Under the pieces are notes generated by a model. That model saw only the letters and a list, made by a program, of their open reading frames with translations, was not told the origin of the DNA and did no database searches. A stretch of DNA of 64,000 nucleotides, from the NCBI RefSeq assembly GCF_004010195.1, contig NC_057753.1, forward strand, positions 5,375,435 through 5,439,434. The letters run 5' to 3'. The stretch comes from Chiloscyllium plagiosum (taxonomy: Eukaryota). Below, in pieces: positions 583 to 50,315 of the stretch (the first letter of the stretch is position 1; each line of letters begins with the position of its first letter). The translations under genes were made by a program, and so were the position numbers.

Positions 583-1140
583 CAACAACACCAGGTTATA
601 GTCCAACTGCTTTATTTGGAAGTACTAGCTTTGAGAGCACTGCTCCTTCGTCAGGTGGCGAGTAGGGCAGGATCATAAAACACAGTATTTACAGCATAAG
701 ATTATATGCTGTAACTTCTTTCAAATCACATTCCCAAGATAATTTAAGGTTTTATTAAAAAAAAGTGACATCTCAGCTCAGACATTGCATTAAAGGTGAG
801 TCACTTTTCCAAAATAAAACCTTAGTTATCTCAGGAATATGACTTGAAAGAAGAAGATCTGCGATTTACATATTAATGAGCCGACAACTGCAACCCATCC
901 TAAAAGATGGGAGACCCAACAGCAATCTAGGTGTGTTGATTATGTCATTTTAATTGCATGACACGATGATCTTGCCCTCTCAGTTCTGTGTCTTACGATC
1001 CTGCCCCACCAACTACCTGACGAAGGAGCAGCGCTCCGAAAGCTAGTACTTCCAAATAAACCTGTTGGACTGTAACCTGGCGTTGAGAGATTTTTAAAAA
1101 CTTTGTCCAGCCCAGGCCAAAAGCGGCACCTCCTCATCAT
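583..1140. mobile_element. Non-autonomous PLE-derived fold-back element (family A termini, inverted)
   Basis: 583-700 is the reverse complement of ~980-1090 (aaacctgttggactataacctggtgttg plus hammerhead motif). Confidence 0.7.
1014..1048 (+). ncRNA. Minimal type-I hammerhead ribozyme motif (family A)
   Basis: tac-CTGACGA-a-GGAGC/agc/GCTCC-GAAA-GCT-A-gta: catalytic core, stem II, palindromic AGCT stem III, stem I tac/gta. Confidence 0.7.
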
Positions 1141-1194
1141 AATTTGGGAAAAGCAACGGGACATTGCCCACCACTGCAGCCACCGGGCTCCAGC

Positions 1195-1330
1195 TCACGA
1201 TCAGTGATTGACAGCAGATTGGCACCAATAGGAAGAGCGCCTGGAGGACTAGGAGTCCTCCAACCAATCAGCTTGAAGGCTAGCGGCAGGACGCAGCTCC
1301 CACTGCGCATGTGTGCTGCCGCGCGCCGCC
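1195..1330 (-). promoter_or_regulatory. Leftward arm of a CpG-rich bidirectional promoter
   Basis: TGATTGACAG 1205-1214, CCAAT 1225-1229 and ~1264, TGGAGGAC/GTCCTCCA inverted repeat ~1242-1262, NRF1-like TGCGCATG ~1304. Confidence 0.6.
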
Positions 1331-1559
1331 CTTCGGCGGCCGGTTGATGGGGCCTAAAAATCCGAGCGAAGCCCGTGTAGTAGCAGCAGCAACAGCTGTT
1401 GACGTCGCCGCATCTGAAAGTGGCACTGCCAGGTTTCGAGGTTAGAAAAAAAATGGTTCAGTAGATTCACGGAGCGTCAAGCACCCACCCACCTTGCCTT
1501 ACCTTTCTCGTTTCCTCAGGCGGGGTTTCCCCACTGTTTCCGACGGCGGCGCTGTCACT

Positions 1560-1850
1560 ACTACGCATGCGCTGGAGCAAACGCAGTGATGCAGCGTTAT
1601 CAGCCAAAGACGGAGCACCGAGGTCTGCCCGCCCTCTCATTCACTCCCATTGGTTGGAGGACCAACCGCCGCCGCTCTGTACTCCAGCCCCACCGCTTTG
1701 TTCACTCCCATTGGTTAGAGGACCATCCGACGCAGCTCTGTCCTCCAGGCCCGCCCCCTCATTCATTCCCATTGGTTGGAGGACCAGCCTCACGCGCTCG
1801 GTCTTCCAGTCCCGCCCCCATATTCACACCCATTGGTTGGAGGACCCCAG
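1560..1850 (+). promoter_or_regulatory. Promoter array of 61-bp CCAAT/GC-box units, part 1
   Basis: ATTGG at 1649, 1710, 1771, 1832 (exact 61-bp period); CCGCCC GC boxes; NRF1-like CGCATGCG ~1564. Confidence 0.7.
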
Positions 1851-3097
1851 CAATGCGTGTCTTTGTTGGCTACTTAGAACAGTCCATCCCCCGTAGTTAC
1901 ACCGGCACCACTCCCCACCTCTTCCTCTGCCACATTGATGACTGCAGTGGCGCCACCTCGTGCAGGACCCCAGCAATGCGTGTCTTTGTTGGCTACTTAG
2001 AACAGTCCATCCCCCGTAGTTACACCGGCACCACTCCCCCTCTTCCTCTGCCACATTGATGACTGCAGTGGCGCCACCTCGTGCTCCAGCGAGGAGGTTG
2101 AGCAATTCATCAACTTCACCAACACATTCCACCCCGACCTTTAATTTACCTGGACCATCTCTGACACCTCCCTCCCTGGACCTCTCCATCTCCATTAATG
2201 ACGACGGACTTGACACTGAAATTTTTTTACAAACCCACCGACTCCCACAGCTACCTGGATTACACCTCTTCCCACCCTACCTCCTGCAAAAATGCCATCC
2301 CGTATTCCCAATTCCTCCGCCTCCACCGTTTCTGCTCCCAGGAGGACCGGTTCCACCACCTCCCATCCTGGCACCTTCCCCTGCCACCACAGAAATTGCA
2401 AACCTGCGCCCACACCTCCTCCCTCACCTCCATTCAAGGCCCCAAAGGAGCCTTCCACATCCATCAAAGTTTTACCTCACATCCACCAACACCATTTATT
2501 GTATCCGTTGCTCCCGATGCAGTCTCCTCTACATTGGGGAGACTGAATGCCTCCTAGCAGAGCGCTTTAGGGAACATCTCTGGGACACCTGCACCAATCA
2601 ACCCCACCGCCCTGTGGTCCAACATTTCAATTCCCTCTCCTACTCAGCCGAGGACATGCAGGTCCTGGGCCTCTTCCACCGCCACCCCTCACACTCGACG
2701 CCTAGAGGAAGAATGCCTCATCTTCCATCTCGGAACACTTCAAACCCAGGGCATCAATGTGGACTTCACCAGTTTCCTCATTTCCTGTTCCCTCACCTCA
2801 CCCCAGTTCCAACCTTCCAGCTCAGCACTGTTCCCATGACCTGTCTATCTTCCTTTCCACTTATCCACTCCACCTTCCTCTCTGACCTATCACCTCCATG
2901 CCACCCCCATTCACCTATTGTACTCTATGCTATCTTCACCCCAGCCCTACCCCTCTCATTTATCTCTGCACCCTGCCTCTATTCCTTTTGCCCGAAACAT
3001 CGATTTTCCTGCTCCTCGGATGCTGCTTGACCTGCTGTACTTTTCCAGCACCACTCTAATCTAGACTCTGGTTTCCAGCATCTGCGGTCCTTATTTT
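1841..3097 (+). mobile_element. Penelope-like element, 5'-truncated (RT C-terminus, GIY-YIG endonuclease, 3' terminus)
   Basis: 'FYKPTDSHSYLDYTSSHPTSCKNAIPYSQFLRL' (RT thumb) and 'IYCIRCSRCSLLYIGET...AERFREH' (GIY-YIG); frameshifted; family-B terminus ~2985-3097. Confidence 0.9.
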
Positions 3098-3099
3098 TA

Positions 3100-3410
3100 C
3101 CCGGACCAACAGCTGCAGCTCGGTCCTCCAGCCATACCCGCCCCTTTATTCACTCGCATTGGCTGGAGGACCAACCGCCGCAGATTAGTCCTCCAGCCCC
3201 GCCCCTCATTTGCCCCACCTTCCACTTGATTGGAGGACGAACCGCTACAACAGTTTGATGTTCCAGCTCCGACCTTCATTCATTCCCATTGGTTGGAGGA
3301 CCAGTCTCTCTTGATTGGTCCTTCATCGCCCCCCCTCACCAATTTCCGATTGGCACCCCGCCCCTACCCACCCCCCCCCCCCCGGCTGCCTTCAAGCAAC
3401 CCGGACTCCT
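3100..3410 (+). promoter_or_regulatory. Promoter array of CCAAT/GC-box units, part 2
   Basis: cattggctggaggacc ~3157, cattggttggaggacc ~3287; CTGGAGGAC..GTCCTCCAG inverted repeat; GC boxes. Confidence 0.65.
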
Positions 3411-3416
3411 GAGCGT

Positions 3417-3528: not shown

Positions 3529-4339
3529 TTTTGACAGGGTTCGTGTGGAGCAAGACGAGTCCCGTTGTTAGGGAATATAGCAAATGCTGGAGATCACAGC
3601 GGGTCAGACAGACCCCATGACGTTGAAGAGCATATGTCCGAAACATCGACTGGCTGCTCCTTGGATGCTGCCTGACCTGCTGTGCTTTTCCAGCACCGCA
3701 CCTATCGACTCAGCACCCATGAAGTGTCATATTATACCCAAAATGTTAGCTTGCTCTCTCTCTCAATGGATGTTGTCTGACTTGCTGTGATCTTGCTGTA
3801 CCGTTTTCGGTACAGATTCCAGCATCTGTAGTAATTTGCTGCTATTGCACACCAAGATTTGGACAAGCTTTCAGAGCGCTACTCCTTCGTCAGATAACTG
3901 GTGAGGCAGGATCATAGGACACAGTATTTATAGTAAAAGATCCAAGTGTCCTACCACTTTATACTCACAAGCATACACATACACACTCTCTCACAAACAC
4001 TCACACCTCTCCCCACTCACAAACCCACATGCACACATAAATATAAGTTTGTGAGGTGAATTTGTCCTTGCAGAATTACATTTTATTTTACTCAAAAACT
4101 GCACGAATCCATGTAAGATTCCGCAAATCCCTTTTTTAGAAATAGAACCAGTCTGAACGTTGAGGCGCAGACAGTTTAACCTCACACCTTCAATGCATTA
4201 TCTGAGCTGACATGGCATCTGTTGTTAAAGTTCACTTGAGAATGTAAATTAAAAAGTTCTGGGATAACATACAGAAGAAATGAAATCAACAAGATCATTT
4301 TTTTTTAAATGAAAGACTTAACAAACAATCCAGGTTATA

Positions 4340-4622
4340 GATAAGATTCCCTGCAGTGTGAAAACAGGCTGTTTAGCCCAACCCCATCCTCAAAGAGTAA
4401 CCCACCCAGACCCATTTCCTTACATTTACCCCTGACAAATGCACCCAACACTATGGGCAATTTAGCATAGCTAAGTCACCTGATCTGCACATCTTTGTGG
4501 AAAGAAACCCACCCAGATACGGGGAGAATGTGCAAACTCCACATGGATAGTGGCCCAAAGCAGGAATTGAACCTAGATCCCTGGCTCTGTGAGGTAGTAA
4601 TGCTAACCACTGAGCCACTGTG
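4340..4622 (-). mobile_element. HE1-like tRNA-derived V-SINE
   Basis: tRNA-like head, V-domain GTGGAGTTTGCACATTCTCCCCGT, CR1-like tail. Confidence 0.8.
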
Positions 4623-4696
4623 GTCTTTTCCAACATATCATTTCAGTTGCATCACAGTGTAAACTTGTGCCATAAATTCTGTTGTATTCCACGAAA

Positions 4697-4731
4697 TACC
4701 TGATGAAGGAGCAGCTCTCCGAAAGCTAGTG
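4697..4731 (+). ncRNA. Minimal hammerhead ribozyme motif (family A)
   Basis: tac-CTGATGA-a-GGAG..CTCC-GAAA-GCTA-gtg. Confidence 0.6.
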
Positions 4732-5145
4732 CTTCCAAATAAACCTGTTGGACTATAACCTGGTGTTGCATGGTTCTTAACTGATGTATTGAACAAAGAA
4801 TCGTTCCAAAAGCTTGTACTTGCCAATAAACCTGTTGGACTACAACCTGGTTTAGATCAGAGTGGTGCTGGAAAAGCACAGCAGGTCAGGCAGCATCCCG
4901 AGGAGCAGGAAAATCGACATTTCGGGCAAAAGCCCTTCATCACGAATAGCCTGACCTGCTGTGCTTTTCCAGCACCACTCTGATCTAAACTCTGGTTTCC
5001 AGCCTCTGCAGTCCTCACTTTTGCCTGGACTATAACCTGGTGTTGTGTGATTTTTAACTTGGTCCACTCCAGTCCAACATCATTATCAAGACTTGGGGTC
5101 GGGTGAAATCTGGATCAGTGGTGCTGGTGAAATCTACAGAGTAGG

Positions 5146-5310
5146 CAGCCCCGCCTCTCATTCGCACACTGGTTGGGGGAGCGAGCAGGCACAATGGAAT
5201 ATTGTCCCGCCTCCCATGTCCTATTGGTCGTGCCCGCCATCAATCACCCCGGGCATTGTGACGTTTCGCAGCTGCCTGGCAAGCAGGTAGGTCGGTCAGT
5301 GTGAGTGACA
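5146..5310 (+). promoter_or_regulatory. Proximal promoter and putative first exon of ZNF gene 1
   Basis: GC boxes, ATTGG 5223 with CCATCAATCA 5237-5246; donor candidates CAG|GTAGGT 5287 and GTGAGT 5301. Confidence 0.55.
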
Positions 5311-5669
5311 TTGATCAGATGTGAGGACCCTGTGACGAGGGGAGAAAGCGATTGCTATTCGTCTTATCCCCATTCTGCAAGCAGGAGCTCAAGAGATGAG
5401 CACAGCCAGCGTGGGAGAAAGCTGTGCGTGCAGAAATTGTGCAATGGGTTTGAACATCAGCCAGTCGTAAGAATGAGTGTTTGGGGTGTGGATTTACCCC
5501 ACCCCCCCTTTTTGTTGGGGAAGGAGAGGGAAAAAAAAGACGATCCATACAAACTGGAATTCCTACTTTCCATTGGCCACGAAGGGTTTTGTGTTCTGCT
5601 TTCCCCAAAAGGGATAATTTACGTCGCGCAGGCTTCTGGTTCGCTGACGTCGTTTAAAAAAGATGTTGG

Positions 5670-5835
5670 CAATCTTTACCCACTCTGGCCGACATGTGAT
5701 CCCAGACCCCAGGAATGTAGTCGACTCTTAACGGCCCTCTGGGTGATTAGGGATGGGCAATAAGTACAGCTCAAATAAATAAATACAGCCCAAGTTAGTG
5801 AAGCCCACATCCTGTGAATGAATTTTTAAAAAAAA
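5670..5835 (+). mobile_element. SINE 3' part with L2-type tail (DeuSINE-like)
   Basis: ...gactcttaacggccctctg..ttagggatgggcaataa..gcccacatcctgtgaatgaat(A)n; also at ~30090-30350, 31805-31950, 50840-51205. Confidence 0.6.
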
Positions 5836-6114
5836 ATGGATTCAATGGACTCCTTCTGCAATGTATCCATTCTTTGATTCAGTAAATTTACCGACAGGAG
5901 ACCTGTAACAAACTTTATAACAACATCTGACAATAACTCGATTTTTCAGGACCTGAATATAGAATGAGAAATGTTTGTTGAGAACATTTCAAACATCACT
6001 GTGACTTGAAAAGCACCGAGTCGCACTCAACGAGTGAGGATATTCCAATACTGTGATGGTGGTAGTTATACAGCCTGAGGAAGCATTGCACCGTTCTCAT
6101 TGTGGAGAATCTGA

Positions 6115-7029
6115 ATGCATGTTCTGTGCGTATACAAGGCTTCAGCTGATCGTCCGACCAAGGGCACCCACATCATGGAGAAACTGTGTAAGTGTGGGGA
6201 TTGTGGGAAGGGATTTAATTACCCCTCTCAGTTAGAATACCATCGACGCAGTCATGTTGGAGCAGGCATCATGGAGAAACCGTGGAAATGTGCAGATTGT
6301 GGTAAGGCATTCAATTTTCCATGCCTACTGGAAATTCATTGTCGCAGTCACACTGGGGAGAAGCCATTCATTTGTTCCATATGTGGGAAGGGATTCGCTA
6401 AGTCAACCAATTTGCTGAGACACCAGCGAAATCATACGGACACGAAGCCTTTCAGTTGCACTTATTGTGGAAAGAGTTTTGGACAGTCCTCGAACCTCAC
6501 TGCACACCAGCGTGTTCACACCGGGGAGAGGCCATTCACCTGTCCCGAGTGTGGGAAGGGATTCACTCAGTCAGCCAGCCTCATGTTGCATCAGAGAATT
6601 CACACCGAGGAAAAGCCATTCAGCTGCAGCTATTGTGCAAAGAGGTTCAGGCAGTCTTCTGACCTTGCTGCACACCAGCGGGTTCACACTGGGGAGAAAC
6701 CGTTCACCTGCTCTGTGTGTGGGAAGGGATTCACCCATTCATCTGGCCTTTGGTCACACCAGCGGGTTCACACTGACGAGAAGCTGTTTGTTTGCACTTC
6801 CTGTGGAAAGAGGTTCAGACACTCTTCTGGCCTCACGGCACATCAGCGCACTCACACTGGCGAGAGGCCATTCACCTGCTTCCTGTGTGGCAAGAGATTC
6901 ACTCAGTTATCTCACCTGCTGGCACACCAGCGCGTTCACACCGGGGTGAAGCCGTTCACCTGCTCAGAGTGTGGTAAAGGATTCACTCAGTCCGCTCATC
7001 TGCTAACACACCAAAGAGTTCACACTTGA
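6115..7029 (+). CDS. C2H2 zinc-finger protein, 10 tandem fingers (ZNF gene 1); strong-Kozak alternative start at 6175
   Basis: Open 304-aa frame with CxxC-x12-HxxxH fingers and TGEKP-type linkers. Confidence 0.9.
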
Positions 7030-7114
7030 GAGAAGCCGTTCACTTGCCCCGTGTGTGGGAAGGAATTCACTCAGTCACGATATCTGCTAAGACACCAGCG
7101 AAGTCGACAAGTGA
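7030..7114 (+). pseudogene. Vestigial 11th zinc finger after a premature TGA
   Basis: After the stop, the frame reads [24 protein letters not shown], then shifts. Confidence 0.8.
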
Positions 7115-7499
7115 CTACAGGTTTTGGACTCTGCTGTTATTCCTGCTGTAATCACATCTGCGATTGAAATTCTGATGGTATTAGTTTCGTTTCTGCTAAT
7201 ATTAACAATCCCCATAACTGACTAGAATTCTGGATGTGTCACCAAATTTCAGTGTCTCCTTTTAAAAGGACTACCTGCGATCTTCCCTCTTGATACAAGA
7301 AGTCTCACCAGGAACTAGTTTATAATAAAACTATGAACTTTCACTTCAATCCTAAATTGATCCTTGGTGCAAAGTTTGCGATCCAGTGACTGAAAGGTTC
7401 CACTGATCAACATCTCCGGTGACAAAGTGCTGATTAGTCCTTGCTGCCAAATCTTACTGACTGGCATATTCTTCACAGTCCCAACTCCTTGTGAAACTA

Positions 7500-11994: not shown

Positions 11995-12620
11995 TCAATC
12001 TAGTCTACTGCATTCACTGCTCACAATGTGCTGTCCTCTACTTTAGGGAAATGAGGCATGGACTGGGTGAACACTTCACAGAACACCTAGGCTCTGTCCA
12101 CAAAAGAGACTGAACTTCCACTTGCCTGCCTTTTCAACACACTACCTTGTTCCCTGGTCAACATCTCTATCTCAGGCTTGCTGCAGTGCTCCAGTGAAGC
12201 TCAGCGCAAGCTGGAGGAACAGCACCTCATTTTCCACTTGGGGACCCCACAGCCTTCTGGACTGGATATCAAATTCAACAATTTTAGGGCTTGAGGCAAC
12301 TTCTTCCATGTTCTTACCCCTTTGGGCCTTGTTATCACATGGTCTGCTATTATACAGTACCCATTAATGGCCATTCATTCTCGAACGCTGACCATTATCC
12401 ACGCTTTTGTCTGTCTAACCATTCTTCTCTCCCTTTGGGCTTTATCTCCACTTCCAAACCCTCCTCCCATCATATCCTCTGCAAAAAAAAACCCAACTTT
12501 TTCTGCGATACCATCAGTTCTGAAGAAGGGTCATTGGACCCGAACTGTTAACTCTGCTTTCTCTCCACAGAATCTGCCAGATCTGCAAAGATTTTCCAGC
12601 AATTTCTGTTTTTGTTACAG
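11995..12620 (+). mobile_element. Degraded PLE GIY-YIG region with family-C terminus
   Basis: gtctactgcattcactgctcacaatgtg..ctctac resembles 2495-2540; terminal gttctgaagaagggtcattggacccgaac 12517-12544. Confidence 0.65.
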
Positions 12621-15212: not shown

Positions 15213-15445
15213 CCGTAGCAAATGGAAATAGCTGGAGAAATTCAGCAGGTCTGATAACATCTGTGATGAGAAAGCAGAGTCACCATTTCAGGTCCAGTGG
15301 ACTTTCTTCAGAATGTTCTGAAGGAGGGTCACTGGACCTGAAATGTTGACTCTGCTCTCTCTCCACAGATACTGTCAGACCTGTTGAGTTTCTCCAGCTA
15401 CTTCTGTTTTTGTTTCAGATTTCCAGCAGTTCTCTGTTTTTTCTT
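15213..15445. mobile_element. Family C PLE-derived fold-back (MITE-like) element
   Basis: ~100-bp inverted arms meeting at ttcttcagaa/ttctgaagga; degenerate hammerhead motifs in both arms. Confidence 0.7.
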
Positions 15446-18169: not shown

Positions 18170-18555
18170 AGTTGGAGGAGTCGACGTTGGACTGGGGTGG
18201 ACCAAGTTAAAAATCACAACACCAGGTTATAGTCCAACAGGTTTAGTTGGAAGCACTAGCTTTCGAGGCACTGCTTCTTCATCAGATGATTGTGAAGCAG
18301 GATCGTGAGACACAGAATTTATAGCAAAGGATTACGGTCATACAATGATATATTGTACAAACCAGATTGTTAAGTCTTTCATCTTTCAGAACCGAAACCA
18401 GCACAAGACTTAACAATCTAGGTTTGCTCAACGTATCACTGAAATGTTTTGCTATAAATTCTGTGTCTTATGGTCCTGCTTCAGAACCACCTGATGAAGG
18501 AGCAGCTCTCCGAAAGCTAGTGCTTCCAAATAAACCTGTTGGACTATTACCTGTT
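18170..18555. mobile_element. Family A PLE-derived fold-back element
   Basis: Inverted arms; minus hammerhead ~18255-18289, plus 18488-18522. Confidence 0.7.
18488..18522 (+). ncRNA. Minimal hammerhead ribozyme motif (family A)
   Basis: cac-CTGATGA-a-GGAG..CTCC-GAAA-GCTA-gtg. Confidence 0.65.
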
Positions 18556-18794: not shown

Positions 18795-19560
18795 GCACGC
18801 CCCCTCGCCCCATTCATTCCTAATGTTGGGAGGACCATCCGAACCCCGTTGGTCCTCCAGCCCCGCCCCTCATTCTCACCGATTGTTTGATAACTAGCCT
18901 CCCCCCCCCTCCCACCTCGTTTGGACCTCCAGCACCGCCCCCCAACGATTCATTCCTATTGTTTGGAGGACCAGTCTGTCCCGGTTGGTCACCCAGCCCC
19001 GCCCCACACAATTGTTCGGCGAACCCAGCCACAGCCAATTGCTCCTCTAGCCTATCTCCCCATTCTCTTATTGGTCCAGGGCCACCGTCAATCTCGCAAC
19101 TGCGATCCGGTGCATGCGCAAAGCTGCCGCTGGGACCAGGTCGGTACTACGCGTGCCCGGGATGACTCGCGGGGCGCTTTGTGCTCCTCCTCTGCGACCG
19201 GGTTAGTCGCGGTCAAGTGGAGGGCGTCGTTTCCGCGCTGCGGGCGGTGGGGAAGGCCTCCTCGACACCCGTTGTCGGTCTCGAACCTCAATTTAAAAGC
19301 TGCGGCGTTTCGGCCAGCGGGTGATGGTTGAGATGTTTCTCTCGGCAGCCGCGCTTTAGTCCGGCCCGCCATCTTTAACGGCAGTAGCACGCGGCGGCCA
19401 CCTGAGGCCCCACCCCCCCCCAGACCCCTGCCGAATGTTGGGGAGATCAGGTCCGTCATCAGTCTTCCAGCCGCAGCCGGCTCGTTCCGATTGGACGAGA
19501 CCTCATGTCAATCACTACAAAGTCATTGTGAGCTGAGCGTGCGCACTCCCACTCCACGTG
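18795..19560 (+). promoter_or_regulatory. CpG-island promoter and first exon (probably ZNF gene 2)
   Basis: High CpG; diverged 60-70 bp units with GGAGGACCA..TGGTCCTCC; ATTGG-n10-xxGTCAATC at 19070 and 19490; NRF1-like GCATGCGCA ~19112. Confidence 0.7.
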
Positions 19561-31069: not shown

Positions 31070-31800
31070 GCCTGGAATATTGTGTGCAGCTTGGTCTGCC
31101 TAATGAGGAAGGATGTGATTATCACAAAGGGAGTGCGACAATCTTTTGCCAGACTGATTCCTGGGATGGCAGGACTGGTAGATGAGCGGAGGTTGATTCA
31201 GTTAGGGTTATGCTCACCGGACTTCAGAAGAATGATGAGGAATCTCATAGAATCTTTTAGGTTTCTAACAGGACTAGAGAGGGTAGGGCTGGAAATGTGT
31301 TGCTGGAAAAGCGCAGCAGGTCAGGCAGCATCCAGGGAACAGGAGAATCGATGTTTCGGGCATAAGCCTGATTCCTGAAGAAGGGCTTATGCCCGAAACG
31401 TCGATTCTCCTGTTCCCTGGATGCTGCCTGACCTGCTGTGCTTTTCCAGCAACACATTTCCAGCTCTGATCTCCAGCATCTGCAGACCTAACTTTCTCCC
31501 GAGAGAGGGTAGGTACAGGAAGGATGTTCCTCATTCCAGGGGACATCCAGAACCAAGCAGTCCCGGTCTGAGGATACAGATTTAACCATTTCGGACTGAG
31601 ATGTGGAGAAATTCACCCAGAAGGTGGGTGAGCCTGTGAAACTTGCTACCACAGAAAGCAATCAAGGTCAAAACATTGAATGATTTCAAGAAGGAATTAG
31701 ATATAGCACTTGGGGCTAAAGGGATGAAATATTATGGGGGAAAAGCATATTGAGATGGATAGCGGCCACTATTATAATGAATGGTAAGGGCTGGAAGGGC
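31070..31800 (+). mobile_element. CR1 3' fragment interrupted by a family-B fold-back element (~31288-31500)
   Basis: 'RLIPGMAGLVDERRLIQLGLCS'; gagagggtagg duplicated on both sides of the insertion. Confidence 0.75.
31371..31406 (+). ncRNA. Minimal hammerhead ribozyme motif (family B)
   Basis: attc-CTGAAGA-a-GGGC/ttat/GCCC-GAAA-CGT-C-gatt; palindromic ACGT, GUC cleavage triplet. Confidence 0.65.
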
Positions 31801-35975: not shown

Positions 35976-37634
35976 GAAACCACCCTGACCTGTTCATGCC
36001 TATCGGTGACTCCAGAACCACAGCAATGCAATTGATTCTGGATGGACATTAAATGCTGGCCTCACCAGATCCAAAGAACGAATAAAAGAACACCTGAAAA
36101 GTTAAACTGTACACTTCAATTAAAATGTGAATTAATGTCAACTACAAACGAAATTTGATTTGTACCCACCAATTGCAAGCACTCAGTTTTTTTAATGCTT
36201 TCTCCTTATTAATCTTTTAGTCATTTATTCTGCTCTGCCCCAGAGGGCAGTGGATGCCCAGTCTCTGGATTCATTTAAGAAAGAGTTGGATAGAGCTCTC
36301 AAGGATTGTGGAATCAAGGGTTATGGAGATAAGGCAGGAACAGCATACTGATTAAGGATGATCAGCCATGATCATATTGAATGGTGGTGCAGGCTCGAAG
36401 GGCAGAATGGCCTACTCCTGCACCTATTGTTTATTTATTCTGTCAATTATATCCTGCCTAGTCCTGTGATCTGACACCCATTTCTGCAATTAGTTTGCTC
36501 TGGTACTATGTTTAACCTATTTCTTAGTTAAGCACAAATGGTAGGTCATCCATTTGTATTTTTTCATCATAGCAATTTTTCTTATGAAATATCCCCTTAC
36601 ATGTCTATAACTAACACCTTTATTGGTCTATTTGTTAACTTAATTTGCCAGTTCATGTTAGCTAGCTGTTTTCACATCATCACAATTGCCGTTATTTAAT
36701 TTAAAAATACTAGTCTTAGACTAATCTCTCTCTCTAACTCGACGTAAAATTCAATCACATCATTTCACTGCTGTCTGGAGTGCTTTCTGCAAGATCATTA
36801 ATTAATCCTGTTTCATTGCAATTAAAAAGTCGATGCCATCAGAATATGTTATTTTAAGCATCTATCGCAAAAAAATGTACTCCTCAGCTGAGCTATCATT
36901 GCCCTTCTGATGGCTTCAGCCCATATTAGGATGGGCATACCTCCTGATTATAGCCAGTCACTGGACTTGTAATGTTAACTCTGCTTTCTCTCCACAGATA
37001 CTGCCAGGCTCACAGGGTTTTTCCAGAAATTTCTGCTTTTGTTTGATTTCTAAAGGTCCGGAAGAGGGATTACACCCGAAATGTCGACTTCTCCAACTCC
37101 TGATGCTGCCTGGCTTGCTGTGTTCTTCCAGCCTCCTGCCTATTTTGGATTCCAGCATCTGCAGTTTTTTTTTGTCTCTAACATTGTTTGATTTCCTGAA
37201 TTCTAAGTTCTTGGTTTTATATTATCCCACTATATCTTCCTTTGCACTCAACCCTACTGTATAGTTACTGTCAAGAGTACAGTGCACCATTATCACGTGG
37301 CATTTTGCCCATATCATCTCCCCTATCATTTCTACACTCTGGACTACATAGGTCATCCCTCTCAATTACCACAAAGGGAAAGGTCCAGTTCTCTGCTGGG
37401 ATTTGATCAATTTGGTTTCCAAATGGTTTCAGTCCATGAGGTAAAGTAGCCATGGTCTTACCGGACTATAGGGCTACTCCCTCATTAGAAAAAAACACTA
37501 GTTGTGGTTTAACCTGAGGGTCATCATGCCTCAGGAGAGGGGACCGGTTGAGAAGGAGAGTTCTTCATACGTACGGGTATTGAACATACAACCAGCAGAG
37601 TTAACCTGCCCTGAGTCCATGAGAAGGATCCACC

Positions 37635-37860
37635 CTTCATTGAATCCCATTGGTTGGAGGTCCAGCCTTTTGCAGGTAGGAACTCCAGTCCCGCCCCTCA
37701 TTAGCACCCAATGGTTGGAGGGCCAGTCCCTTGGGTTGTCCTTCGGGCATGCCCCGTCATTGGTTGGAGGACGAGCCATTTGAGGGTTGGTCCTCCAGTC
37801 CTCACTCCCTCAGTGACGCCCACTGCTTGGATCCAGACACGCCCCCACCGTCTGATTGGC
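37635..37860 (+). promoter_or_regulatory. CCAAT/GC-box promoter (probably ZNF gene 3)
   Basis: cattggttggagg at ~37648 and ~37758, TGGAGGAC..GTCCTCCA, GC box, ATTGG ~37855. Confidence 0.65.
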
Positions 37861-38354
37861 GCGGTTGTGGTCTGGAGGGTCCGCAGTGCGGTTGTGGTCT
37901 GGGGAATCCGCAGTCCGGTTGTGGTCTGGAGGGTCCGCAGTGCGGTTGTGGTCTGGAGGGTCCGCAGTGCGGTTGTGCTCTGGGGAATCCGCAGTGCGGT
38001 TGTGATCTGGAGGGTCCGCAGTGCGGTTGTGGTCTGGAGGGTCCGCAGTCCGGTTGTGCTCTGGGGAATCCGCAGTGCGGTTGTGATCTGGAGGGTCCGC
38101 AGTGCGGTTGTGGTCTGGACGATCCGCAGTGCGGTTGTGGTCTGGGGAATCCGCAGTGCGGTTGTGGTCTGGAGGATCCGCAGTCCGGTTGTGGTCTGGA
38201 GGGTGCGCAGCGCGGTTGTGGTCTGGGGAATCCGCAGTGCGGTTGTGGTCTGGGGAATCCGCAGTGCGGTTGTGGTCTGGAGGATCCGCAGTGCGGTTGT
38301 GGTCTGGGGAATCCGCAGTGCGGTTGTGGTCTGGAGGATCCGCAGTCCGGTTGT
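37861..38354. repeat. 27-bp GC-rich minisatellite, ~18 copies, in the putative first exon
   Basis: Unit GCGGTTGTGGTCTGG(AGGGT/GGAAT/AGGAT)CCGCAGT; donor GAG|GTGAGT at 38410. Confidence 0.95.
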
Positions 38355-38841
38355 CGAGCTGTTTCGGGCCCGTGATGTTGAATGCCGGAGCACTTCAGAG
38401 ACGGGCGAGGTGAGTGGGGCAGGAAGGGATCGAAGGAGGTGGCGGTGCGTGTTCGGTGAGATGACTCCAAACGGCACGACGTGGCTTCAAACCCCGAGTA
38501 ACAAACTCCCGTGTCGCTCCGCAGCGGACGGGGCTTCTCTTTTCGAAGGGCCCCGGCTAACAACCGCCTCTTTCATGGTTAAAAATCACACAACACCAAG
38601 TTATAGTCCAACAGGTTTAATTGGAAGCACTAGCTTTCAAAGCGACGCTCCTTCATCTGGTGATAGTGGAGGGCTCAATTGTAACAGAATTTATAGCAAA
38701 AATTTACAATGTGATGTAACTGAAATTATACATTGAAAAATCGATTGTCTGTTAAGCCTTTCATCTTCCAAGTCTGTGAGAAGATTTGTAGCTCGGGTGC
38801 TCGTTGTTGTGGTTCTGTTCGCCGAGCTGGGAATTTGTGTT

Positions 38842-38881
38842 GCAGACGTTTCGTCCCCTGTCTAGGTGACATCCTCAGTGC
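38842..38881 (-). ncRNA. Minimal hammerhead ribozyme motif (family D)
   Basis: gca-CTGAGGA-t-GTCACCT/agac/AGGGGAC-GAAA-CGT-C-tgc. Confidence 0.7.
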
Positions 38882-38941
38882 TTGGGAGCCCCCTGTGAAG
38901 CGCTTCTGTGATGTTTCCTCCAGCATTTATAGTGATTTGTA

Positions 38942-39375
38942 NNNNNNNNNNNNNNNNNNNNNNNNNNNNNNNNNNNNNNNNNNNNNNNNNNNNNNNNNNN
39001 NNNNNNNNNNNNNNNNNNNNNNNNNNNNNNNNNNNNNNNNNNNNNNNNNNNNNNNNNNNNNNNNNNNNNNNNNNNNNNNNNNNNNNNNNNNNNNNNNNNN
39101 NNNNNNNNNNNNNNNNNNNNNNNNNNNNNNNNNNNNNNNNNNNNNNNNNNNNNNNNNNNNNNNNNNNNNNNNNNNNNNNNNNNNNNNNNNNNNNNNNNNN
39201 NNNNNNNNNNNNNNNNNNNNNNNNNNNNNNNNNNNNNNNNNNNNNNNNNNNNNNNNNNNNNNNNNNNNNNNNNNNNNNNNNNNNNNNNNNNNNNNNNNNN
39301 NNNNNNNNNNNNNNNNNNNNNNNNNNNNNNNNNNNNNNNNNNNNNNNNNNNNNNNNNNNNNNNNNNNNNNNNNNN
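38942..39375. other. Assembly gap
   Basis: Run of N. Confidence 1.
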
Positions 39376-40444
39376 GTTTTTGGCGAATACATTGTATAGG
39401 TGTTCTTCCTCTTTTTGCAGTTCTGGTGTATTGCAGTGTGTTGTGGCCCTTTTGAATAGTATCTTGATGCAACTTCTTTTGTGTGTGTTGGGGTGGTTGC
39501 TTTCGTAGTTTAGGACTTGATCTGTGTGTGTGGCTTTCCTATGTACCTTTGTGGTGAATTCTCCGTTCGGTGTTCTCTGTACCATCACGTCTAGGAGTGG
39601 GAGTTGATTGTCCTCTTCTTCCTCTCTAGTGAATCGGATTCCTGTGAGTGTGGCGTTGATGATCCGGTGTGTGTTCTCTATTTCTGTGTTTCACATGATT
39701 ACAAAGGTTAACAATTGTTTACAATTAACTGTTAACAATGGTGATAGCTAGACAATATGTTGAAGGTGTTAGCCCCCCTGTGTTTTCTGTCTATGCCATG
39801 ATATTTAGATTGATTCTAATCTAAAAAGTGAGATAACGGAGTTTTACATACGGAGCACTCCTATACACACATACACATGGACACACATATACACAGACAT
39901 CCACACACACCCTTACAGACACACACGCACACACACATGCACCCCCTCACAGACTTAAGACACTGCACTCACTACACACACACATACATTTTCTCACACT
40001 CCCAACCCCCAACCCAGACAGACACACACACACACACACAGACAAAGACCCACATGCACACACATATTTTGTGGGGTTAATTTGTACTTACAGGGTTACA
40101 TTGTACTTTGCTCAAAAACTGCATGAATTCATGTAAAACTCAGCTATCTCACTTTTTAGATTAGAATCAATCTAAACATCATGGCATTGACAGAAAACAC
40201 GACGGGGGGGGCTAACACCTTCAACATATTGTCTAGCTATCACCATTGTTAACAGATAACCCGAGAATGCAACTTCTTAAAACAAGGTTTTGTGATTTAC
40301 ACATGAAAGAAGTGAAACTATCACGGTATTCTAACAGATGAAAGGCTTAACAGACGATCGATTTTTCAATGTATAATTTCAGTTACATCACATTGTAAAT
40401 TTTTGCTATAAATTCTGTGAGTTTAGGATTGAGCCCTCCACTAT

Positions 40445-40479
40445 CACCTGATGAAGGAGTGACGCTCCGAAAGCTAGTG
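40445..40479 (+). ncRNA. Minimal hammerhead ribozyme motif (family A)
   Basis: cac-CTGATGA-a-GGAGT/gac/GCTCC-GAAA-GCTA-gtg. Confidence 0.7.
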
Positions 40480-40761
40480 TGCTTCCAATTAAACCTGTTG
40501 GACTATAACCTGGTGTTGTGTGATTTTTAACTTTGTACACCCCAGTTCAACACCGGCATCTCCAAATCATGCCATTTTCGTGAGGGGCGATTTGCTGAAG
40601 AGAGCATATGCTGGAGCCATCTTTGTAGGGGGCAGTGTACAGCTGGGTGGACCTGGAAGGCAATGAAAGAAATCCCAGACAATCCTGCAGACGGTTCTCT
40701 GTAGTTCTAGGGATTTATTATTTCCTTATCCTTTTTATAAGATGTGGACATGGCTGGCAAG

Positions 40762-42715: not shown

Positions 42716-45190
42716 TTGCTTTGAATAAAGGTAAAAGAAAATTGTGAAATCTGAAACAAACATAGAGAATGCAAGTCAGACTCAGCAGGTCTGGCATCTG
42801 TAGAAAAAAAGCAGTTAAAAGTATTGAGTCCAGTGTGATTTCCTCAAAACTCCCTTTTGAATGCCTCGATTGATGTATCAAGATTGAAGCAGCCCACTTG
42901 GTGCTCAATTGGATAGAGTTCTGCTTCTTGATTGTTAATGGAGCTGCACTCATCCAGCCAAATGGAAAATATTGCATCACACTTTTGACTTGTGCCTTGT
43001 AGATTGTGGACGGGGTTGGGGAATAGGACGGAATTCTCAGTCTCTAACTTTCTTGTGTAGCCACACTATTGATATGGCTGGTTCAGCTCAGTTTCTGGTC
43101 AGTGTTAACCCTGGGATGTTGCTTGGAGGTGGTGGAGGGGTTCAGTTATGGCAATGCTATTAACTGTCAACAGCAGATAGTTGAATTGTGGACACTTTGG
43201 AGAGGGTGCGGAGAAGGTCTTTGAGGATGTTGCCTGGTATGGAAAGTGCTAGCTATGAAGAGTGGACGAATAGGTTAGGATTGTTTTCGTTAGAAAAAAG
43301 GAGATTGGGGGGGACCTGACTGAGTATAGATAGAGTGGATAGAAATAAGTTTTTTCCCAGGCTGAAGGATTCACTAACAAGGGTCACGCATTCAAGGTGA
43401 GAGGAGGAAAGCTAAGGGGAATACACACGGAAAGTACTTCACACAGAGGAAGGGAGGTTCCTGGAACGTGTTGGCAGCAGAGGTAGTAGAAGCAGGTACA
43501 GTAGATTAATTTAAGGTGCATCTGGACAGATACACAAGTGGGTGGGGAGCGGAGGGATACAGATCCTTAGGAATTGGGCGATAGGTTTAGATAGTTGATT
43601 TGGATCAGCACAGGCTTGGAGGGTAGGAGAGCCTGTTCCTGGGCTGTAAATTTTCTTCTTTGGTCTTTGTCATTTGTTGGAACTGGCCATTATGTGGCAC
43701 TTGAGTGTCACTTGCCAGTTAGCATCCTGAGACCATAAAATATAGGAGCAGAATTAGGCCATTTAGCTCACTGAGTTTTCTCTGCCATTTGATCACGGTC
43801 GATATGTTTCTTAACCTCATTCTCCTGCTTTCTCCCCTTACTAACCAAGAATCTTAAATACACTCAAGGACCTGGCCTTTTGAGGCAATGAGTTCCACAG
43901 ATTCATCACTGTCTGGCTGAAGAAATTCCTCCTTATCTCCTTTCTAAAGTGTCATCTCTTCACTCCAAGGCTGTGCACTCAGGTTCTAATCTCTCTTACT
44001 ACTGGAAACATCTTTTTCACATTCACTCTCACTATTCTTGCATCTTGTCTAGGTCTTGCCACAAATGAACACTGGCTTCTTAAATATCTGAGGAGTTACA
44101 GTCGGCACTGAGTATTGCGCAGTCACCGGCGAACATTCCCAACGCTGACCTTATGATGGAATGGAAGTCATCGCTGAAGTAGCTGAAGGTTTGGGCCTTG
44201 GACATTTTCCCAGCAGTGATGAACTAGGGTTGAGATGCCTCCAACAACTCCAACCGTACTTCTTTGCGGTAGGGTTGGCTGCAATCAGTGGAGAGTTTTC
44301 TTCCTGATTCCCATTGACCTCAATTGTGTTTTTGATGCCATATTTGGCCTTTAACTCAAGGGCATTCATTTCACGCCACTTCTGGAGTTCAGCTCTATTT
44401 TTTCCACTTTTACATTATGGCTAATGAATCCAAAACTTGGGTTGCCTGGCAAAACAATTGAGCTTTGTGGGGGTTGGGGGGGATGGTGGGGGGTGGGGTA
44501 TAATGTCGCTGGTCTAGTAATCTGCAACATGAGGCTAATATTCATGGGTTCAAACTGCACTATGGAAGATGATAAAATCTGAATTCAGTGCACATCTGGA
44601 GTAAAAGGCTAATCCAATAGCCAAATTGTGCCTGTGTAACCAATGTCAATTGTCATAAAACCTCATCTGGGAATCCTGGGAAGGAAATCTGCCATCCTTA
44701 ACTAGTGTGGCCTAGAAATGACACCAAAACCTAATGAGGGGGCTTGGATGGAGTGGTTAGAAAGCAACTGTTCCCGTTAGTTGAAGGGTCAATAACAAGG
44801 GGGCATAATTTTAAGGTGAAAGACAGGAGATTTGGGGGGATTTTGGGGGGAAAAAGAGGGTAGTGGCAATCTGGAACTCATTACTGTCTTACCCCTCTCT
44901 CTTCCCACAGAAGCCTGGTTCTTGTGTGGACCCAGATCTATTGACAGGGTTGCCTTCATGATGGACATTAGTGAACTAGCTAGCTTTTTATGACAATCCA
45001 GCATCTTCCGTGGTCTAGGGTTGGTGCAACAATTTACCAGACTGATTCAGCTCAGTTTTACAACCCATCTTTGATGTTTTTTTCTTGATTGTCTTTCATT
45101 CCTGTTTCTTTGTTTTACGCTGATTTCACAGGGTATGAGAAGGAGTGGATTTGTAGTCATGAAACACACCAAACGTCCCGTCAGGATTGG

Positions 45191-47680
45191 ATGGAGCAGC
45201 TCAATTCATTGCAACCTGAATATCATCGGATTTTGAACATGGAAGGAATCAGTACTGATCAGAGTGGGGAGAAACCGTGCACGTGTCTTGTGTGTGGACA
45301 AGGTTTCAGCCAGTCATCTGACCTGACAGAACATAAGTGCAGTCACAGTAGGCAGAAACCATGGAAATGTGGGGATTGTGGGAAGGGATTTAGTTATCCA
45401 TCAGAGCTGGAAATCCATCGACGCAGTCACACTGGGGAGAGGCCATTCACCTGCCCCAAGTGCGAGAAGGGATTCATCACCTCATCGCACTTGGTGGCGC
45501 ACCAGCGGGTTCACACTGGGGAAAGGCCGTTCACGTGCTCCAAGTGCGGGAAGGGATTCACCACCTCATCGCACTTGGTGACGCACCAGCGGGTTCACAC
45601 TGGGGAAAGGCCGTTCACCTGCTCTGAGAGTGGGAAGAGCTTCACTCAGTCGTCCCAACGACTGATGCACCGGGGAATTCACACCAGGGAGAAGCTGTTC
45701 ACCTGCTCGAGTTGTGAGAAGAAATTCACTCAGTTGCACAAATTGTTGACACATCAGCGAGTTCACACTGGGGCGAAGCCTTTCAGCTGCTCCATGTGTG
45801 GGAAAGAGTTTGCTCAGTCATCCAACTTGTCGAGACACCAGCAACTTCACACAGATGATAGATCTTTTAAATGCATGGACTGCGGGAAGTGCTGTAAAAG
45901 TTCCGGGGAACTAATGTCCCATCAACGAGCTCACACAGACAAGGCATTGTTGAAGTGCTCTTGCTGTGGGGCTGGTTTCAGGGGATCATCTCAGCTCACT
46001 TTACACCAGCGAGTTCACACTGGGGAGAAGCCTTTTTCCTGCTCTGATTGCGGGAAGGAATTCAGTCGGTCATCCTACCTGTTGACACACCAGCGGATGC
46101 ACACCGGTGAGAGGCCGTTCACCTGCTCGGAGTGTGGGAAAGGGTTTACTCGGTCATCCCAGTTAATGGCCCATCAGCGGGTTCACACTAGGGAGAGGCC
46201 ATTCACCTGCTTGGAGTGTGGGAAGGGATTCACTTGTTCATCCCATCTGCTGACACACCAGCGGGTTCACACCAGGGAGAAGCCATTCACCTGCTCCAAG
46301 TGTGGGAAGGGGTTTGCTCGCTTATCCAACCTGCTGACCCACCAGCGGGTTCACACTGGAGAGAGGCCGTTCTCCTGCTCAGAGTGCGGGAAGGAATTCA
46401 CTGATTCGTCCCAACTGCGCGCACACCAGCGAGTGCACACTGGGGAGAGGCCGTTCTCCTGCTCCGAGTGTGGGAAGGGATTCATTCAGTCGTCCCAACT
46501 AAGGGCACATCAGTGTACTCACACTGGAGAGAGGCCATTCACATGTTGCGAGTGCGGGAAGGGATTCACTTGTTCATCCCATCTGCTGACACACCAGCGG
46601 GTTCACACCAGGGAGAAGCCATTCACCTGCTCCAAGTGTGGGAAGGGGTTTGCTTGCTTCTCCAACCTGCTGACCCACCAGCGGGTTCACACTGGAGAGA
46701 GGCCGTTCTCCTGCTCAGAGTGTGGGAAGGAATTCACTCAGTCGTCCAACCTGCTGAGACACCAGCGACTGCACACTGGGGAGAGGCCGTTCTCCTGCTC
46801 CGAGTGTGGGAAGGAATTCAGTGATTCATCCCAACTGCGCCCACACCAGCGAGTGCACACTGGGGAGAGGCCGTTCTCCTGTTCCGAGTGTGGGAAGGGA
46901 TTCATTCAGTCATCCCAACTAAGGGCACACCAGTGTACTCACACTGGAGAGAGGCCATTCACATGTTGCAAGTGCGGGAAGGGATTTACTCAGTCTTCCA
47001 GCATGATGAGACACCAGCGGATCCACACTGACGAGAGACCTTTCAAGTGTTCTGACTGTGGGGAGTGCTATAAAAGTTCTGGGGAACTGATGACCCATCA
47101 ATATGTTCACACTGGCGAGAGACCCTATAGCTGCTGTCAGTGTGGGAGGGGGTTCAGACGATCATCTCAACTCACTGTACACCAGCGAATTCACACTGGG
47201 GAGAAGCTGTTCTCCTGCTCTGAGTGTGGGAAGGAATTTCTTCGGTCTTTCCAACTGGTGATACACCAACGAGTTCATACTGGGGAGAGGCCCTTCACCT
47301 GCTTGGAGTGTGGGAAGGGATTCACTTGCCCATCCCATCTGCTAATTCATCAAAGAATTCACACTGGCGAGAGACCGTTCATCTGCCCCAAGTGTGGGAA
47401 GGGGTTTGGTCACTCATCCAGCCTGGCGAGACACCAGCGAGTGCACACTGACGAGAGGCCTTTTGAATGTTCAGATTGCGGGAAGTGCTTTAAGAGTTGC
47501 GGGGAACTAAGGGTCCATCAACGTGTTCACACGGGTGAGAGACCGTTCAGGTGCTCTCACTGCAAGGTTGGATTCAGAAGGTTATCGAACCTCATTGTGC
47601 ACCAGCGAGTTCACACTGAGGACAGCCAGTCCCAGCCTCAGTGTGTGGAAAGAGATTCAATCAGGCATCCACCCTCCTGA
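45191..47680 (+). CDS. C2H2 zinc-finger protein, 28 fingers, one with Cys>Ser (ZNF gene 3)
   Basis: Long open finger array; acceptor ttcacAG at 45130-45131; first in-frame ATG after it at 45191. Confidence 0.9.
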
Positions 47681-48149
47681 GCCACTAGTGAGTGCATACC
47701 GGGGTCGTGCTGCACCCCTGCTCTGAGTGTGGGAAAGACGGTTTCTTACTCATCAAGCTTACATTAGCAAGTCCAGGACAATTTTGTTGTGGCGTCATGA
47801 TCAGGACGGAACTATTTCCATTGTGGTCCTGAATTGCAGTGCTGTGTTTGGAGTCAGTATTGTGGATAAAAGTAAAACAAAAAACAGCTTGGTGTGCTAT
47901 ATACCCATTGTTGACTTTTTTTGTCTATTTCTTAGCACAAGTTCCCTTTGGAAGGGCTGTTCCTCACTCCTGCCTTCCCCATCCTCATTTCCAGCAAGAG
48001 GTTTGCTAAGTTCTTGGTCTTCTTTGTTGCTAAAATTCAGGTCTTTCAATCATCTGTGACATAGGTTGCTCCAACCAAGCTTAGAAAGTGCATCTTTCTC
48101 TTGCCTCAAGCCTCGTTCGTTCTTATCACTAAATTGCTGACCACTATGC

Positions 48150-49290
48150 TTGCCCCTTTTGCTGATAATTGTTTAGGATCAAGAGAAAATATAATAGCAC
48201 TCTAGCAACACTGAAGATCCTTGACACCATCGGAATAAAGCAGCCTGCATGATTAGCACCACATCTGCAAACATTCACTCTCCCTGTGCCCTGGTAAACA
48301 ATGCTTTGAAGAAATTCACCAAGCCAACACCTTCCAAATTCAGTCTGTACCATGTAGAAGGACATTGGCAGCAGACACATGGAACACCACCACCTTCAAG
48401 CTCCCTTCCACGCACCCTCCCAAGGGCGGGATGGTGGCTCGGTGGTTAGCACTGCTGCCTCTCAGCTCCAGGGAAACCCGGGTTCGATTCCAGCCTCGGG
48501 CAACTGTCTGTGTGGAGCTTGCTCAATTCTCCCCGTATCTGCGTGGATTTCCTCTGAGTGCTCCAGTTTCCTCCCACAATCCAAAGATGTGCAGTTCAGG
48601 TGAATTGGCCGTGCTAAATTGTCCATAGTCCATAGTGTTCCGGGATGGGTAGGTTAGGTGCATGAGTCTGGGGTAAATGTAGGGGAATGGATCTGAGTGG
48701 GATACTCTTCGGAGGGTTGGTATGGACTTGGGCCGAAGGGCCTGTTTCCACATTGTAGGGATTCTAATTCTAAAGCTACTCACCATCTTGATCTGGAACA
48801 ATATCATGATCTTTCATTGTCAATGGATCAGAGATCTAGAACTCCCTCTCCAATAGTATTATGTGTATAACCACACCAAGTAGACCTCCAGAAGGTCAAG
48901 AAGGCAGCTCGCCATCTCCTGTTTAAGGTACAGGCAATGAGTGCTAGTCTAGCTAGACTGCCCATTTCCCTTGAATGGATAGAAAATAAATCACCAAAAA
49001 TCCATAGCAGCTTCCATGACCATTTCTATTTAGAAGGACAAGCCCAGCAGACCCATGGGAACATCATTACCTACAAGTTCCCCTCCAGCCACTCAGGGTC
49101 CTGACTTGGAAATATATTGCTATTCCTTCACTGTCGCTGTGTCAGAATCCTGGAAATTCCCTCCTTCAGGGCATTGCTTGTCTAACTGCAGCAGTTCAAA
49201 AAGATGAAGCGCCTTCTCAAGGGCAACTAGGGATGGGCAATAAATGCTGGCCAGTCAGTGATGCCTATGTCCCACAAGTGAATGCAAAGA
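48150..49290 (+). mobile_element. L2-clade LINE 3' fragments with a nested HE1-like SINE (~48425-48770)
   Basis: ggaacaccaccaccttcaagctccc..gggcaactagggatgggcaataaatgctgg tail. Confidence 0.7.
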
Positions 49291-50280
49291 AATCCTGGAA
49301 CCCTAAAGACTCAAGCTCAAGTTCTCTGTCATGTGATGCCACCATGACCTATCCCCTTTGCACATGAACATTAGAATTCAGAGAATGAATTCTGCTCAAC
49401 ATTTCTCATCATGACTGTTTGAATCATTAACGAGGAACCATTTAAATTTAATGAGCATTTAACTCTTTCCCCTCACATGCTGCCAGTTCTCCCCCCCGCC
49501 TCCACACACACATTTCCTTTAATTGGGACACTGATCTTCAAAATTCCTGTGGAACACCTGAAAAATGTATGTCATTGTCTTAGAGGGTGAGCACTGGGTT
49601 GGTATTTATAAATACCATTTTTAAAAAAGCCTGTACTTTTGATTATGACTGAAATTGGGAAAAGGACTGCTCATTAATTAAAAGAAGACGTGGAAAGGAT
49701 TACTACACTTTTAAAAAGCAAGTTACCTGATATCCTCAAGCAGTGGGGAAAGTCTAGTTGCAGATGAGCTGATTGATCTGGGAATGGTGACCAGTTAGTT
49801 GATGACAAAAACCTTTCTCCTGACAACAGTGATGTGATTGGCTCCCAGGTAGATGACCAGCTTATGGGTGTGATTATTTTGGCAGAAAACATTGGACCTC
49901 TGAAAAGAAAGGCGCTGCCCTTTTCTCTGCAGTTAACAAAATACAATGAAGCCAGAAGAAAGCCATTTTCCTTTCCCTCAGTTGATCCACGCTATTGCTG
50001 TTAATAAGTCTGAGACTTTATAAACGTGAGCCAGTCATCACGTACCTCTTGCAAGCCAGTGAAAATACCTGGGGAAGAAAGATCAAGGAGCAGCAGCAGG
50101 ACCTGACAACCAAAGGAAACACCTCAGTGAACCCTGAAGATAAGGATTATTGAACTGCTTTCCTCAGTCTGTCCCTCTGTCCATTATACTCCTGTTCTGA
50201 TTCTTTGTAAGTCGGTCCATATGTGCAGGGTTAAAAAATCACACAATACCAGGTTATAGTCCAACAGGTTTATTTGGAAG

Positions 50281-50315
50281 CACTAGCTTTCGAGGCACTG
50301 CCTCTTCATCAGATG
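50281..50315 (-). ncRNA. Minimal hammerhead ribozyme motif (family A variant with a compensated stem II)
   Basis: cat-CTGATGA-a-GAGGC/agt/GCCTC-GAAA-GCTA-gtg. Confidence 0.7.

Follow-up and report, generated by a model that had tools for sequence, protein, structure and literature searches.

The 64-kb region of the Chiloscyllium plagiosum genome described here (contig NC_057753.1, bp 5,375,435–5,439,434, forward strand; hereafter the window, in which positions are counted from its first base) lies in a 564-kb cluster (contig positions 5125435–5689434) of 20 single-exon C2H2 zinc-finger (ZNF) arrays that contain 3–27 fingers each, 15 of them on the + strand. Four such coding exons are in the window, at 6115–7029, 27536–28564 and 45089–47680 on the + strand and at 62017–62841 on the − strand. 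Scattered among them are copies of a short motif with the core of a minimal hammerhead ribozyme (min-HHR), in four families (A–D) that have different stems over a common core. The original prediction assigned these motifs to a class described in 2014, the min-HHRs in the pseudo-long terminal repeats (pLTRs) of metazoan Penelope-like elements (PLEs) (Cervera and de la Pena; PMC4209133), and this identification is correct; the motif is real both in the window and genome-wide.

The window was scanned for CUGANGA and with a structural descriptor, and 100 order-3 Markov shuffles served as the control. The strict descriptor gave seven matches in which stem III is a 4-nt palindrome, where the shuffles had a mean of 0.03 (maximum 1); these are family A cores at 1017, 4700, 18491, 26939, 40448 and 50312 (the last on the − strand) and a family D core at 38878 (−). 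It missed the family B copy at 31370–31407 (+; core at 31375) because stem I there, otherwise two runs of 2 bp, is interrupted by a U·U mismatch; this copy has stem II GGGC/GCCC, ACGU-C and an intact core. These eight copies (six A, one B and one D) have the complete minimal type I core, in the order CUGANGA…GAAA…UH. In the family A cores CUGAYGA-A is followed by a stem II of 4–5 bp and then by GAA-AGCU-A, and stem I is 3 bp. Stem III is indeed a palindrome of only 4 nt without a loop (AGCU in A; ACGU in B, C and D), and the extra base claimed to follow CUGANGA is present as position 9.1, where A is found in 34 of 39 cases and T in 4; the first stem II pair is G-C or G-U in six of seven types. 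The core scan and descriptor together bore out all the sites originally given for the four families.

The six family A copies differ in their surroundings. The copy at 1014–1048 (+) is intact, with stem I tac/gta, stem II GGAGC/GCTCC, an AGCU palindrome and a predicted cut after A1045; its pLTR homology extends from 984 to 1140, and its inverted partner at 575–716 (−) has a broken core (CAAA for GAAA). The copy at 4697–4731 (+) has an intact core with a 4-bp stem II inside pLTR homology at 4626–4782, and that at 18488–18522 (+), also with an intact core, has an inverted partner at 18254–18288 (−) with one stem II mismatch. An intact copy at 26936–26970 (+) is intronic in the predicted structure of the ZNF gene at 27536, and its homology (26936–27062) includes the full tail and reaches the element's ATG. 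The intact copy at 40445–40479 (+) is part of a 334-nt pLTR fragment (40238–40571) that is 92% identical to the natural long copy L031, and its inverted partner at 38578–38766 (−) has a broken core. The sixth, at 50281–50315 (−), belongs to a lineage with a compensated stem II (GAGGC/GCCTC). The single family D copy, at 38842–38881 (−), is intact and has an ATG across positions 9, 9.1 and 10.1.

The other named copies are degenerate, as had been supposed. The family B copies near 2990, 4940, 24780, 37055 and 59370 have truncated or mutated cores and correspond to the end of a truncated element discussed below, inverted pairs at 4850–5025 (broken core) and 24650–24880 (two broken cores), a decayed end at 37056–37165 (+) and an end without the 5′ core at 59364–59475 (+); the intact B copy lies at the center of a fold-back with a truncated inverted copy (31285–31467). 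The cores of the four named family C copies (12520, 15319, 52889 and 55882) are all broken; the first is an end at 12514–12617 (+) with its 3′ core affected, and the others lie in inverted pairs at 15220–15428 (two broken cores), 52765–52986 and 55772–55966. None of 11 family C copies recruited by anchors in the window has an intact core. Profiles of the pLTR ends, built from 30 genome copies per family, recovered 39 ends in the window (13 A, 12 B, 13 C and 1 D), many of them in inverted pairs, and the number of copies first listed was thus too low. Among the unlisted ends are a downstream-truncated A piece at 3858–3950 (−), with intact core letters and a weak stem I, and a B end at 19681–19811 (−) with damaged stems II and III. 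Ends of different families often abut (4626–5079, 53103–53284), and junctions of the L009 type are found in L175, L176 and L193.

An Rfam search was no help in recognizing these motifs: its 14 matches at E ≤ 10 include no hammerhead family, only weak hairpin and snoRNA matches below the gathering scores, presumably since the Rfam models expect a real stem III. When 10 copies were folded as monomers the hammerhead with stem III was never the predicted minimum; nine had z-scores of −0.4 to −1.3, and the −2.36 of the 50312 copy is due to its fold-back junction. Such folding, of monomers or of self-cofolds, bears little on the mode of cleavage and is not decisive; the self-cofolds are uninformative. 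A MAFFT alignment of 18 window copies misplaced the D copy and one A copy and was kept out of the pair counts.

What the ribozymes are attached to is clearest from longer copies. PLE reverse transcriptase (RT), its thumb or an endonuclease (EN) domain of the GIY-YIG type lies upstream on the same strand in families A, B and D, as does a GIY-YIG piece in family C, which upholds the placement of these minimal type I hammerheads at PLE termini. In family A, L031 and L032 carry both a pLTR hammerhead and PLE sequence. In L031 two A hammerheads on the same strand, separated by 2.5 kb, enclose a frameshifted open reading frame (ORF) with ADKG and YVDD motifs, and the ATG of this ORF coincides with the end point of the longer A copies. 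In family B, locus L207 and a 5′-truncated element at 1842–3091 (+) in the window display the order RT thumb, Cx4CxxC linker, GIY-YIG and B end; the terminal pLTR of the latter has lost its 5′ core, and its GIY-YIG domain matches Pfam PF01541 at E = 0.0014, under the gathering score. Linkers of the CHRRNCKTC type are present for B in L067, L096, L115 and L209 and in a degenerate, truncated form for A in L031; no Cx2-5CxxC linker was seen in the family C loci examined. Loci L203, L133, L172, L181 and L212 have RT or a linker-less GIY-YIG domain followed by a D end, and a 5′-truncated family D element at 38770–39708 (−) in the window has an RT thumb (39400–39708), an assembly gap and then the pLTR and tail. 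By the linker motif criterion of PMC8557442 alone, A and B would be Neptune-type and D Poseidon-type elements. The region 38578–40571 is nested: the arms of the family A inverted pair enclose an (AC)n tract and the Poseidon-type D fragment.

The 3′ ends of the copies point in the same direction. In all four families (30 copies each) there are two end points 32–38 nt apart, at about 86–91 and 121–126 in A, 94 and 126 in B, 95–100 and 131–137 in C, and 76 and 114 in D; these are the 30–40 bp “tail” of PLEs, which in Anolis has been traced to two internal reverse-transcription start sites (PMC11167929). The 5′ ends are ragged, partner copies in inverted orientation occur in all families, and partial tandems and inverted 5′-truncated copies are present.

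These ends are dispersed through the whole 3.56-Gb assembly. Exact patterns of the four families match 21,816 (A), 65,144 (B), 277 (C) and 4,452 (D) times, about 92,000 copies in all, and the reversed pattern of each, used as a control, matches none. In 60 fixed-position 10-kb stretches (the random sample, 576,292 called bases) the profiles found 198 pLTR ends, or 34 per 100 kb, which extrapolates to a genome total of roughly 1.2 million; the corresponding densities are 47 in the ZNF cluster and 61 in the window. Family B is not locally denser than in the random stretches. Most copies are 80–330 nt long and have no ORF.

Selection on the fold can be followed in the random stretches as well. 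A search for the core that did not require any pairing found 75 matches there, against a mean of 9 in 10 Markov controls. Stem II is formed in 57 of these, a palindromic stem III in 46 and all three stems in 34; the corresponding control means are 0.5, 1.7 and 0. The covariation originally claimed within family A holds for stem II but hardly for stem I. The four-base change of stem II from GGAGC/GCTCC to GAGGC/GCCTC is found in 60 genome copies, against 36 with only the left and 8 with only the right side changed, and is one compensated lineage, a single event. Stem I in 79 A copies is CAC/GTG in 50, TAC/GTG in 5 and CAC/GTA in 4, and the supposed compensated form TAC/GTA is present in only 2. 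Decay after insertion was assessed in copies recruited by their downstream flank alone and kept if the 5′ flank was present, pooled from the random stretches, the ZNF contig and the window (22 of 40 kept for A, 43 of 120 for B, 12 of 47 for C and 8 of 14 for D). Shared variants are absent from all 10 non-CpG core columns in A, B and D, whereas they are found in 10 of 54, 15 of 52 and 5 of 38 flank columns, respectively; this lack of subfamily-level core variants in A, B and D means that the core was likely selected in the mobile master elements. Private variants do not differ significantly in frequency between core and flank in B (2.6% vs. 3.2%, p = 0.65) and C (8.3% vs. 6.2%, p = 0.42), and 14–42% of copies have a changed G12, a position within a CpG. 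Once inserted, the copies appear to decay near-neutrally, like their flanks.

In our judgment the motifs are very probably min-HHRs of type I in the pLTRs of four PLE families, left behind at the 3′ ends of 5′-truncated insertions, and the single copies in the window are likely inert. This explanation is favored because the copies are dispersed repeats with PLE coding sequence directly upstream, with two end points about 35 nt apart and with inverted truncated partners. Reverse transcription would start 75–135 nt downstream of the core, so that nearly every insertion, however short, should keep the hammerhead region. By pairing at the 4-nt palindrome, the two pLTR hammerheads on one RNA of a full tandem element could make up a double hammerhead, which would cut the element RNA, probably with help from the element's own protein. 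Selection on such cutting in the mobile masters would give the invariant core and compensated stems, and after insertion the stranded single copies, probably inactive, would decay as their flanks do.

Several observations do not sit easily with this explanation. Among 19 chosen loci no family has a full-length uninterrupted element, only truncated or frameshifted copies. Family C has GIY-YIG pieces upstream in only 3 of 30 loci, clearly on the same strand in 2, and a shared variant in 1 of its 10 non-CpG core columns (19 of 55 in the flank). In self-cofolding of five copies the double hammerhead was never the state of lowest energy. Private variants in family A are rarer in the core than in the flank (0.9% vs. 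3.1%, p = 0.07, 22 copies), as they are in D (0% vs. 3.1%, p = 0.21, 8 copies), so there may be weak retention of the core after insertion in A (borderline and underpowered) or in D. The core is intact in 7 of 10 family A copies of the window and in 10 of 22 in the random stretches, and family A is locally dense, with 20.5 ends per 100 kb in the window, 11.1 in the cluster and 4.2 in the random stretches.

Two other accounts of the copies themselves fit less well. The short copies could be a self-propagating, nonautonomous family, that is, non-LTR retrozymes that replicate through circular RNA; their usual length and lack of an ORF would suit this, and retrozymes derived from PLE pLTRs are reported from a chondrichthyan genome (bioRxiv 10.64898/2026.07.22.740005). 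The 17 Tandem Repeats Finder rows of the window include no head-to-tail hammerhead array (such arrays were not searched for genome-wide), the ragged 5′ ends and inverted rather than direct partners are not those of retrozymes, and the 3′ ends fit a PLE tail, so we consider this very unlikely. That the motifs arose by chance, or as palindromes that fold-back insertion produced, might be argued from the many copies at fold-back junctions, which are prone to spurious pairing (for example upstream of 50312), and from the failure of Rfam hammerhead models to find them. Seven descriptor matches against 0.03 expected, 34 core-only matches with all three stems against none in the controls, the lineage of 60 copies with four compensated bases and the common core beneath the different stems of four families make this scarcely credible, and it was rejected on the descriptor and core-only counts.

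The original prediction also proposed that intact copies in or near ZNF transcription units could cut host pre-mRNA. In its strongest form, sense intact copies in ZNF introns (26939, 40448 and perhaps 4700) would do so as trans-dimers or with PLE protein and would dampen ZNF expression. The A copies at 26939 and 40448 do lie on the gene strand within predicted ZNF introns, with a predicted promoter or donor on one side and a ZNF exon's predicted acceptor on the other: there are acceptor-like sites near 27302 and 45131 and a donor-like site at 38410, in gene structures predicted from sequence only. Whether the 4700 copy is transcribed hinges on the promoter of the first gene, which could be CpG-rich sequence near 1300 or CCAAT-bearing sequence, then a donor-like site, near 5200; a search of sequencing runs with the sequence at 3950–7400 listed no RNA run that carries it. 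The density of family A ends exceeds that of random stretches 2.6-fold in the cluster and up to 5-fold here, and intact ends of all families within 7 kb upstream of the 20 ZNF exons lean toward the sense strand (14 vs. 7 antisense, p = 0.19). In these same zones the ends as a whole show no strand bias (45 sense vs. 48 antisense, p = 0.84), nor is family A depleted in the sense orientation (16 sense vs. 10 antisense). No predicted ZNF unit has more than one intact sense copy of any family, no same-family, same-strand intact partner accompanies the copies at 26939, 40448 or 4700 in their predicted units, and the palindromes of A and B are incompatible, AGCU not pairing with ACGU.

The lack of a stem III hammerhead among the predicted monomer minima (0 of 10 copies) also argues against host cutting, and single min-HHRs are reported to show no monomer cleavage in vitro and low cleavage as dimers (PMC4209133). 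The Anolis Poseidon hammerhead is reported to have cut only when its element's protein was present, and Anolis RNA-seq had no read ends at the cleavage site (PMC11167929). Introns of Xenopus are reported to be somewhat depleted of tandem retrozymes (bioRxiv 10.64898/2026.07.22.740005), so a small cost of multimers stays plausible. With copies dispersed genome-wide, no orientation bias, no significant protection of the core and no dimer partner, we regard an action of the intact copies on ZNF pre-mRNA as quite unlikely; the idea is unsupported, and no new regulatory device for ZNF genes emerges from these motifs.

The four families resemble the metazoan PLE min-HHRs (PMC4209133) in their type I topology, lack of loop III, palindromic positions 15.2–16.2, extra base between positions 9 and 10.1 and G10.1-C11.1 pair, and also in their location in pLTRs, the presence of several families per genome, the prevalence of single truncated copies and pairs on opposite strands 100–700 bp apart. 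They differ in that stem II is 4–5 bp, vs. 7–8 bp in Schistosoma, and in copy number; the ∼92,000 exact-pattern copies compare with ∼4,000 in coelacanth and ∼9,000 in Xenopus, which were counted with another descriptor. The parts of that report consulted here name no cartilaginous fish, although its supplements may list such families, and a search for shark and elasmobranch Penelope elements found, judged by titles and the beginnings of abstracts, no report on ribozymes. Family D is much like the Poseidon element PAc of Anolis carolinensis (Frangieh et al. 2024; PMC11167929): both have an ATG where stem II begins, then a frame that stays open through the tail, and two ends ∼38 nt apart, with AC-rich sequence at the short one; in neither does a zinc-finger linker precede GIY-YIG, and family D presumably uses the stem II ATG as the start of its ORF as PAc does. 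The D ends differ in lying ∼76 and ∼114 nt after C3, and protein-assisted cleavage has been demonstrated for PAc, to which D is likened by sequence alone. Families A and B differ further from PAc as Neptune-type elements, and the ATG of A is at the long tail end rather than in stem II. Their likeness to the Neptune clade (Craig et al. 2021; PMC8557442), made by motif against the published description, consists of the Cx2-5CxxC linker between RT and EN, which is clear in B and degenerate and truncated in A, together with partial tandems, inverted 5′-truncated copies and a 30–40 bp tail. The animal non-LTR retrozymes (bioRxiv 10.64898/2026.07.22.740005) are similar in being noncoding, PLE-derived carriers of type I hammerheads, reported from one chondrichthyan, but are described as head-to-tail arrays, whereas the copies here, ragged at their 5′ ends, are single or in inverted pairs.

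Four more families, all in one genome, extend a class that was described in 2014. With its very high copy load, this genome is a good place to measure which positions of the hammerhead are indispensable to mobile PLEs, and such a measurement bears on the open question of the purpose of the PLE ribozyme.

The pLTRs contain other sequences that resemble RNA-processing signals, named here by likeness to the consensus poly(A), branch-point and acceptor signals. In family A, 74 of 101 copies have ATTAAA (42) or AATAAA (32) ∼8–12 nt past the predicted cut and then a GU-rich tract; TATAAAT lies ∼45 nt upstream of the core, and in L031 TTTAAC..CCCCAG lies just before the ATG of the ORF. The signals of this family are present at 26975–27062 in the window. 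The order TATA box, hammerhead, poly(A) hexamer, GU-rich tract, branch-point/CAG and ATG resembles the R region of an LTR, a lead that would give a putative promoter, poly(A) site and acceptor. In family C the 3′ strand of stem I overlaps a TTAAC branch-point-like motif that abuts the predicted cut and is followed by a pyrimidine tract and a CAG/ATG boundary (window 12545–12580 and 52915–52950; L141–L170), and the ribozyme would lie inside an intron in the element's 5′ untranslated region (UTR). Introns in PLE 5′-UTRs are known (PMC2377424), and one is reported to abut the D. virilis hammerhead (PMC4209133); no literature on PLE poly(A) signals was found in a search for Penelope pLTR polyadenylation. 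Neptune-type pLTRs might then act as compact switches of RNA processing, with the hammerhead in competition with host machinery, and if so, these ends, of which there are roughly a million, would supply host genes with poly(A) sites, splice acceptors and cut sites that protein can switch. This idea is doubtful and stays a lead because a single event accounts for the A/T toggle, B has no conserved AG and there is no sense depletion.

Several minor features concern the ZNF genes themselves. The exon at 27536–28564 is apparently frameshifted near 28455, with finger-like sequence out of frame past the ninth finger, and a second copy of the ZNF acceptor and exon-start sequence at 25421–25548, 1.8 kb upstream of the one near 27300, is possibly an alternative or duplicated exon. 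A unit of ∼61 bp with CCAAT and GC boxes recurs in the CpG-rich stretches ahead of ZNF genes (1627–1846, in tandem; 3110–3345; 18810–19010; 37640–37800) and is possibly a cluster-specific promoter module. The predicted first exon of the ZNF gene at 45089 contains, at 37861–38354 and directly ahead of the donor-like site (38410), a CpG-rich 27-bp tandem repeat of 18.3 copies.

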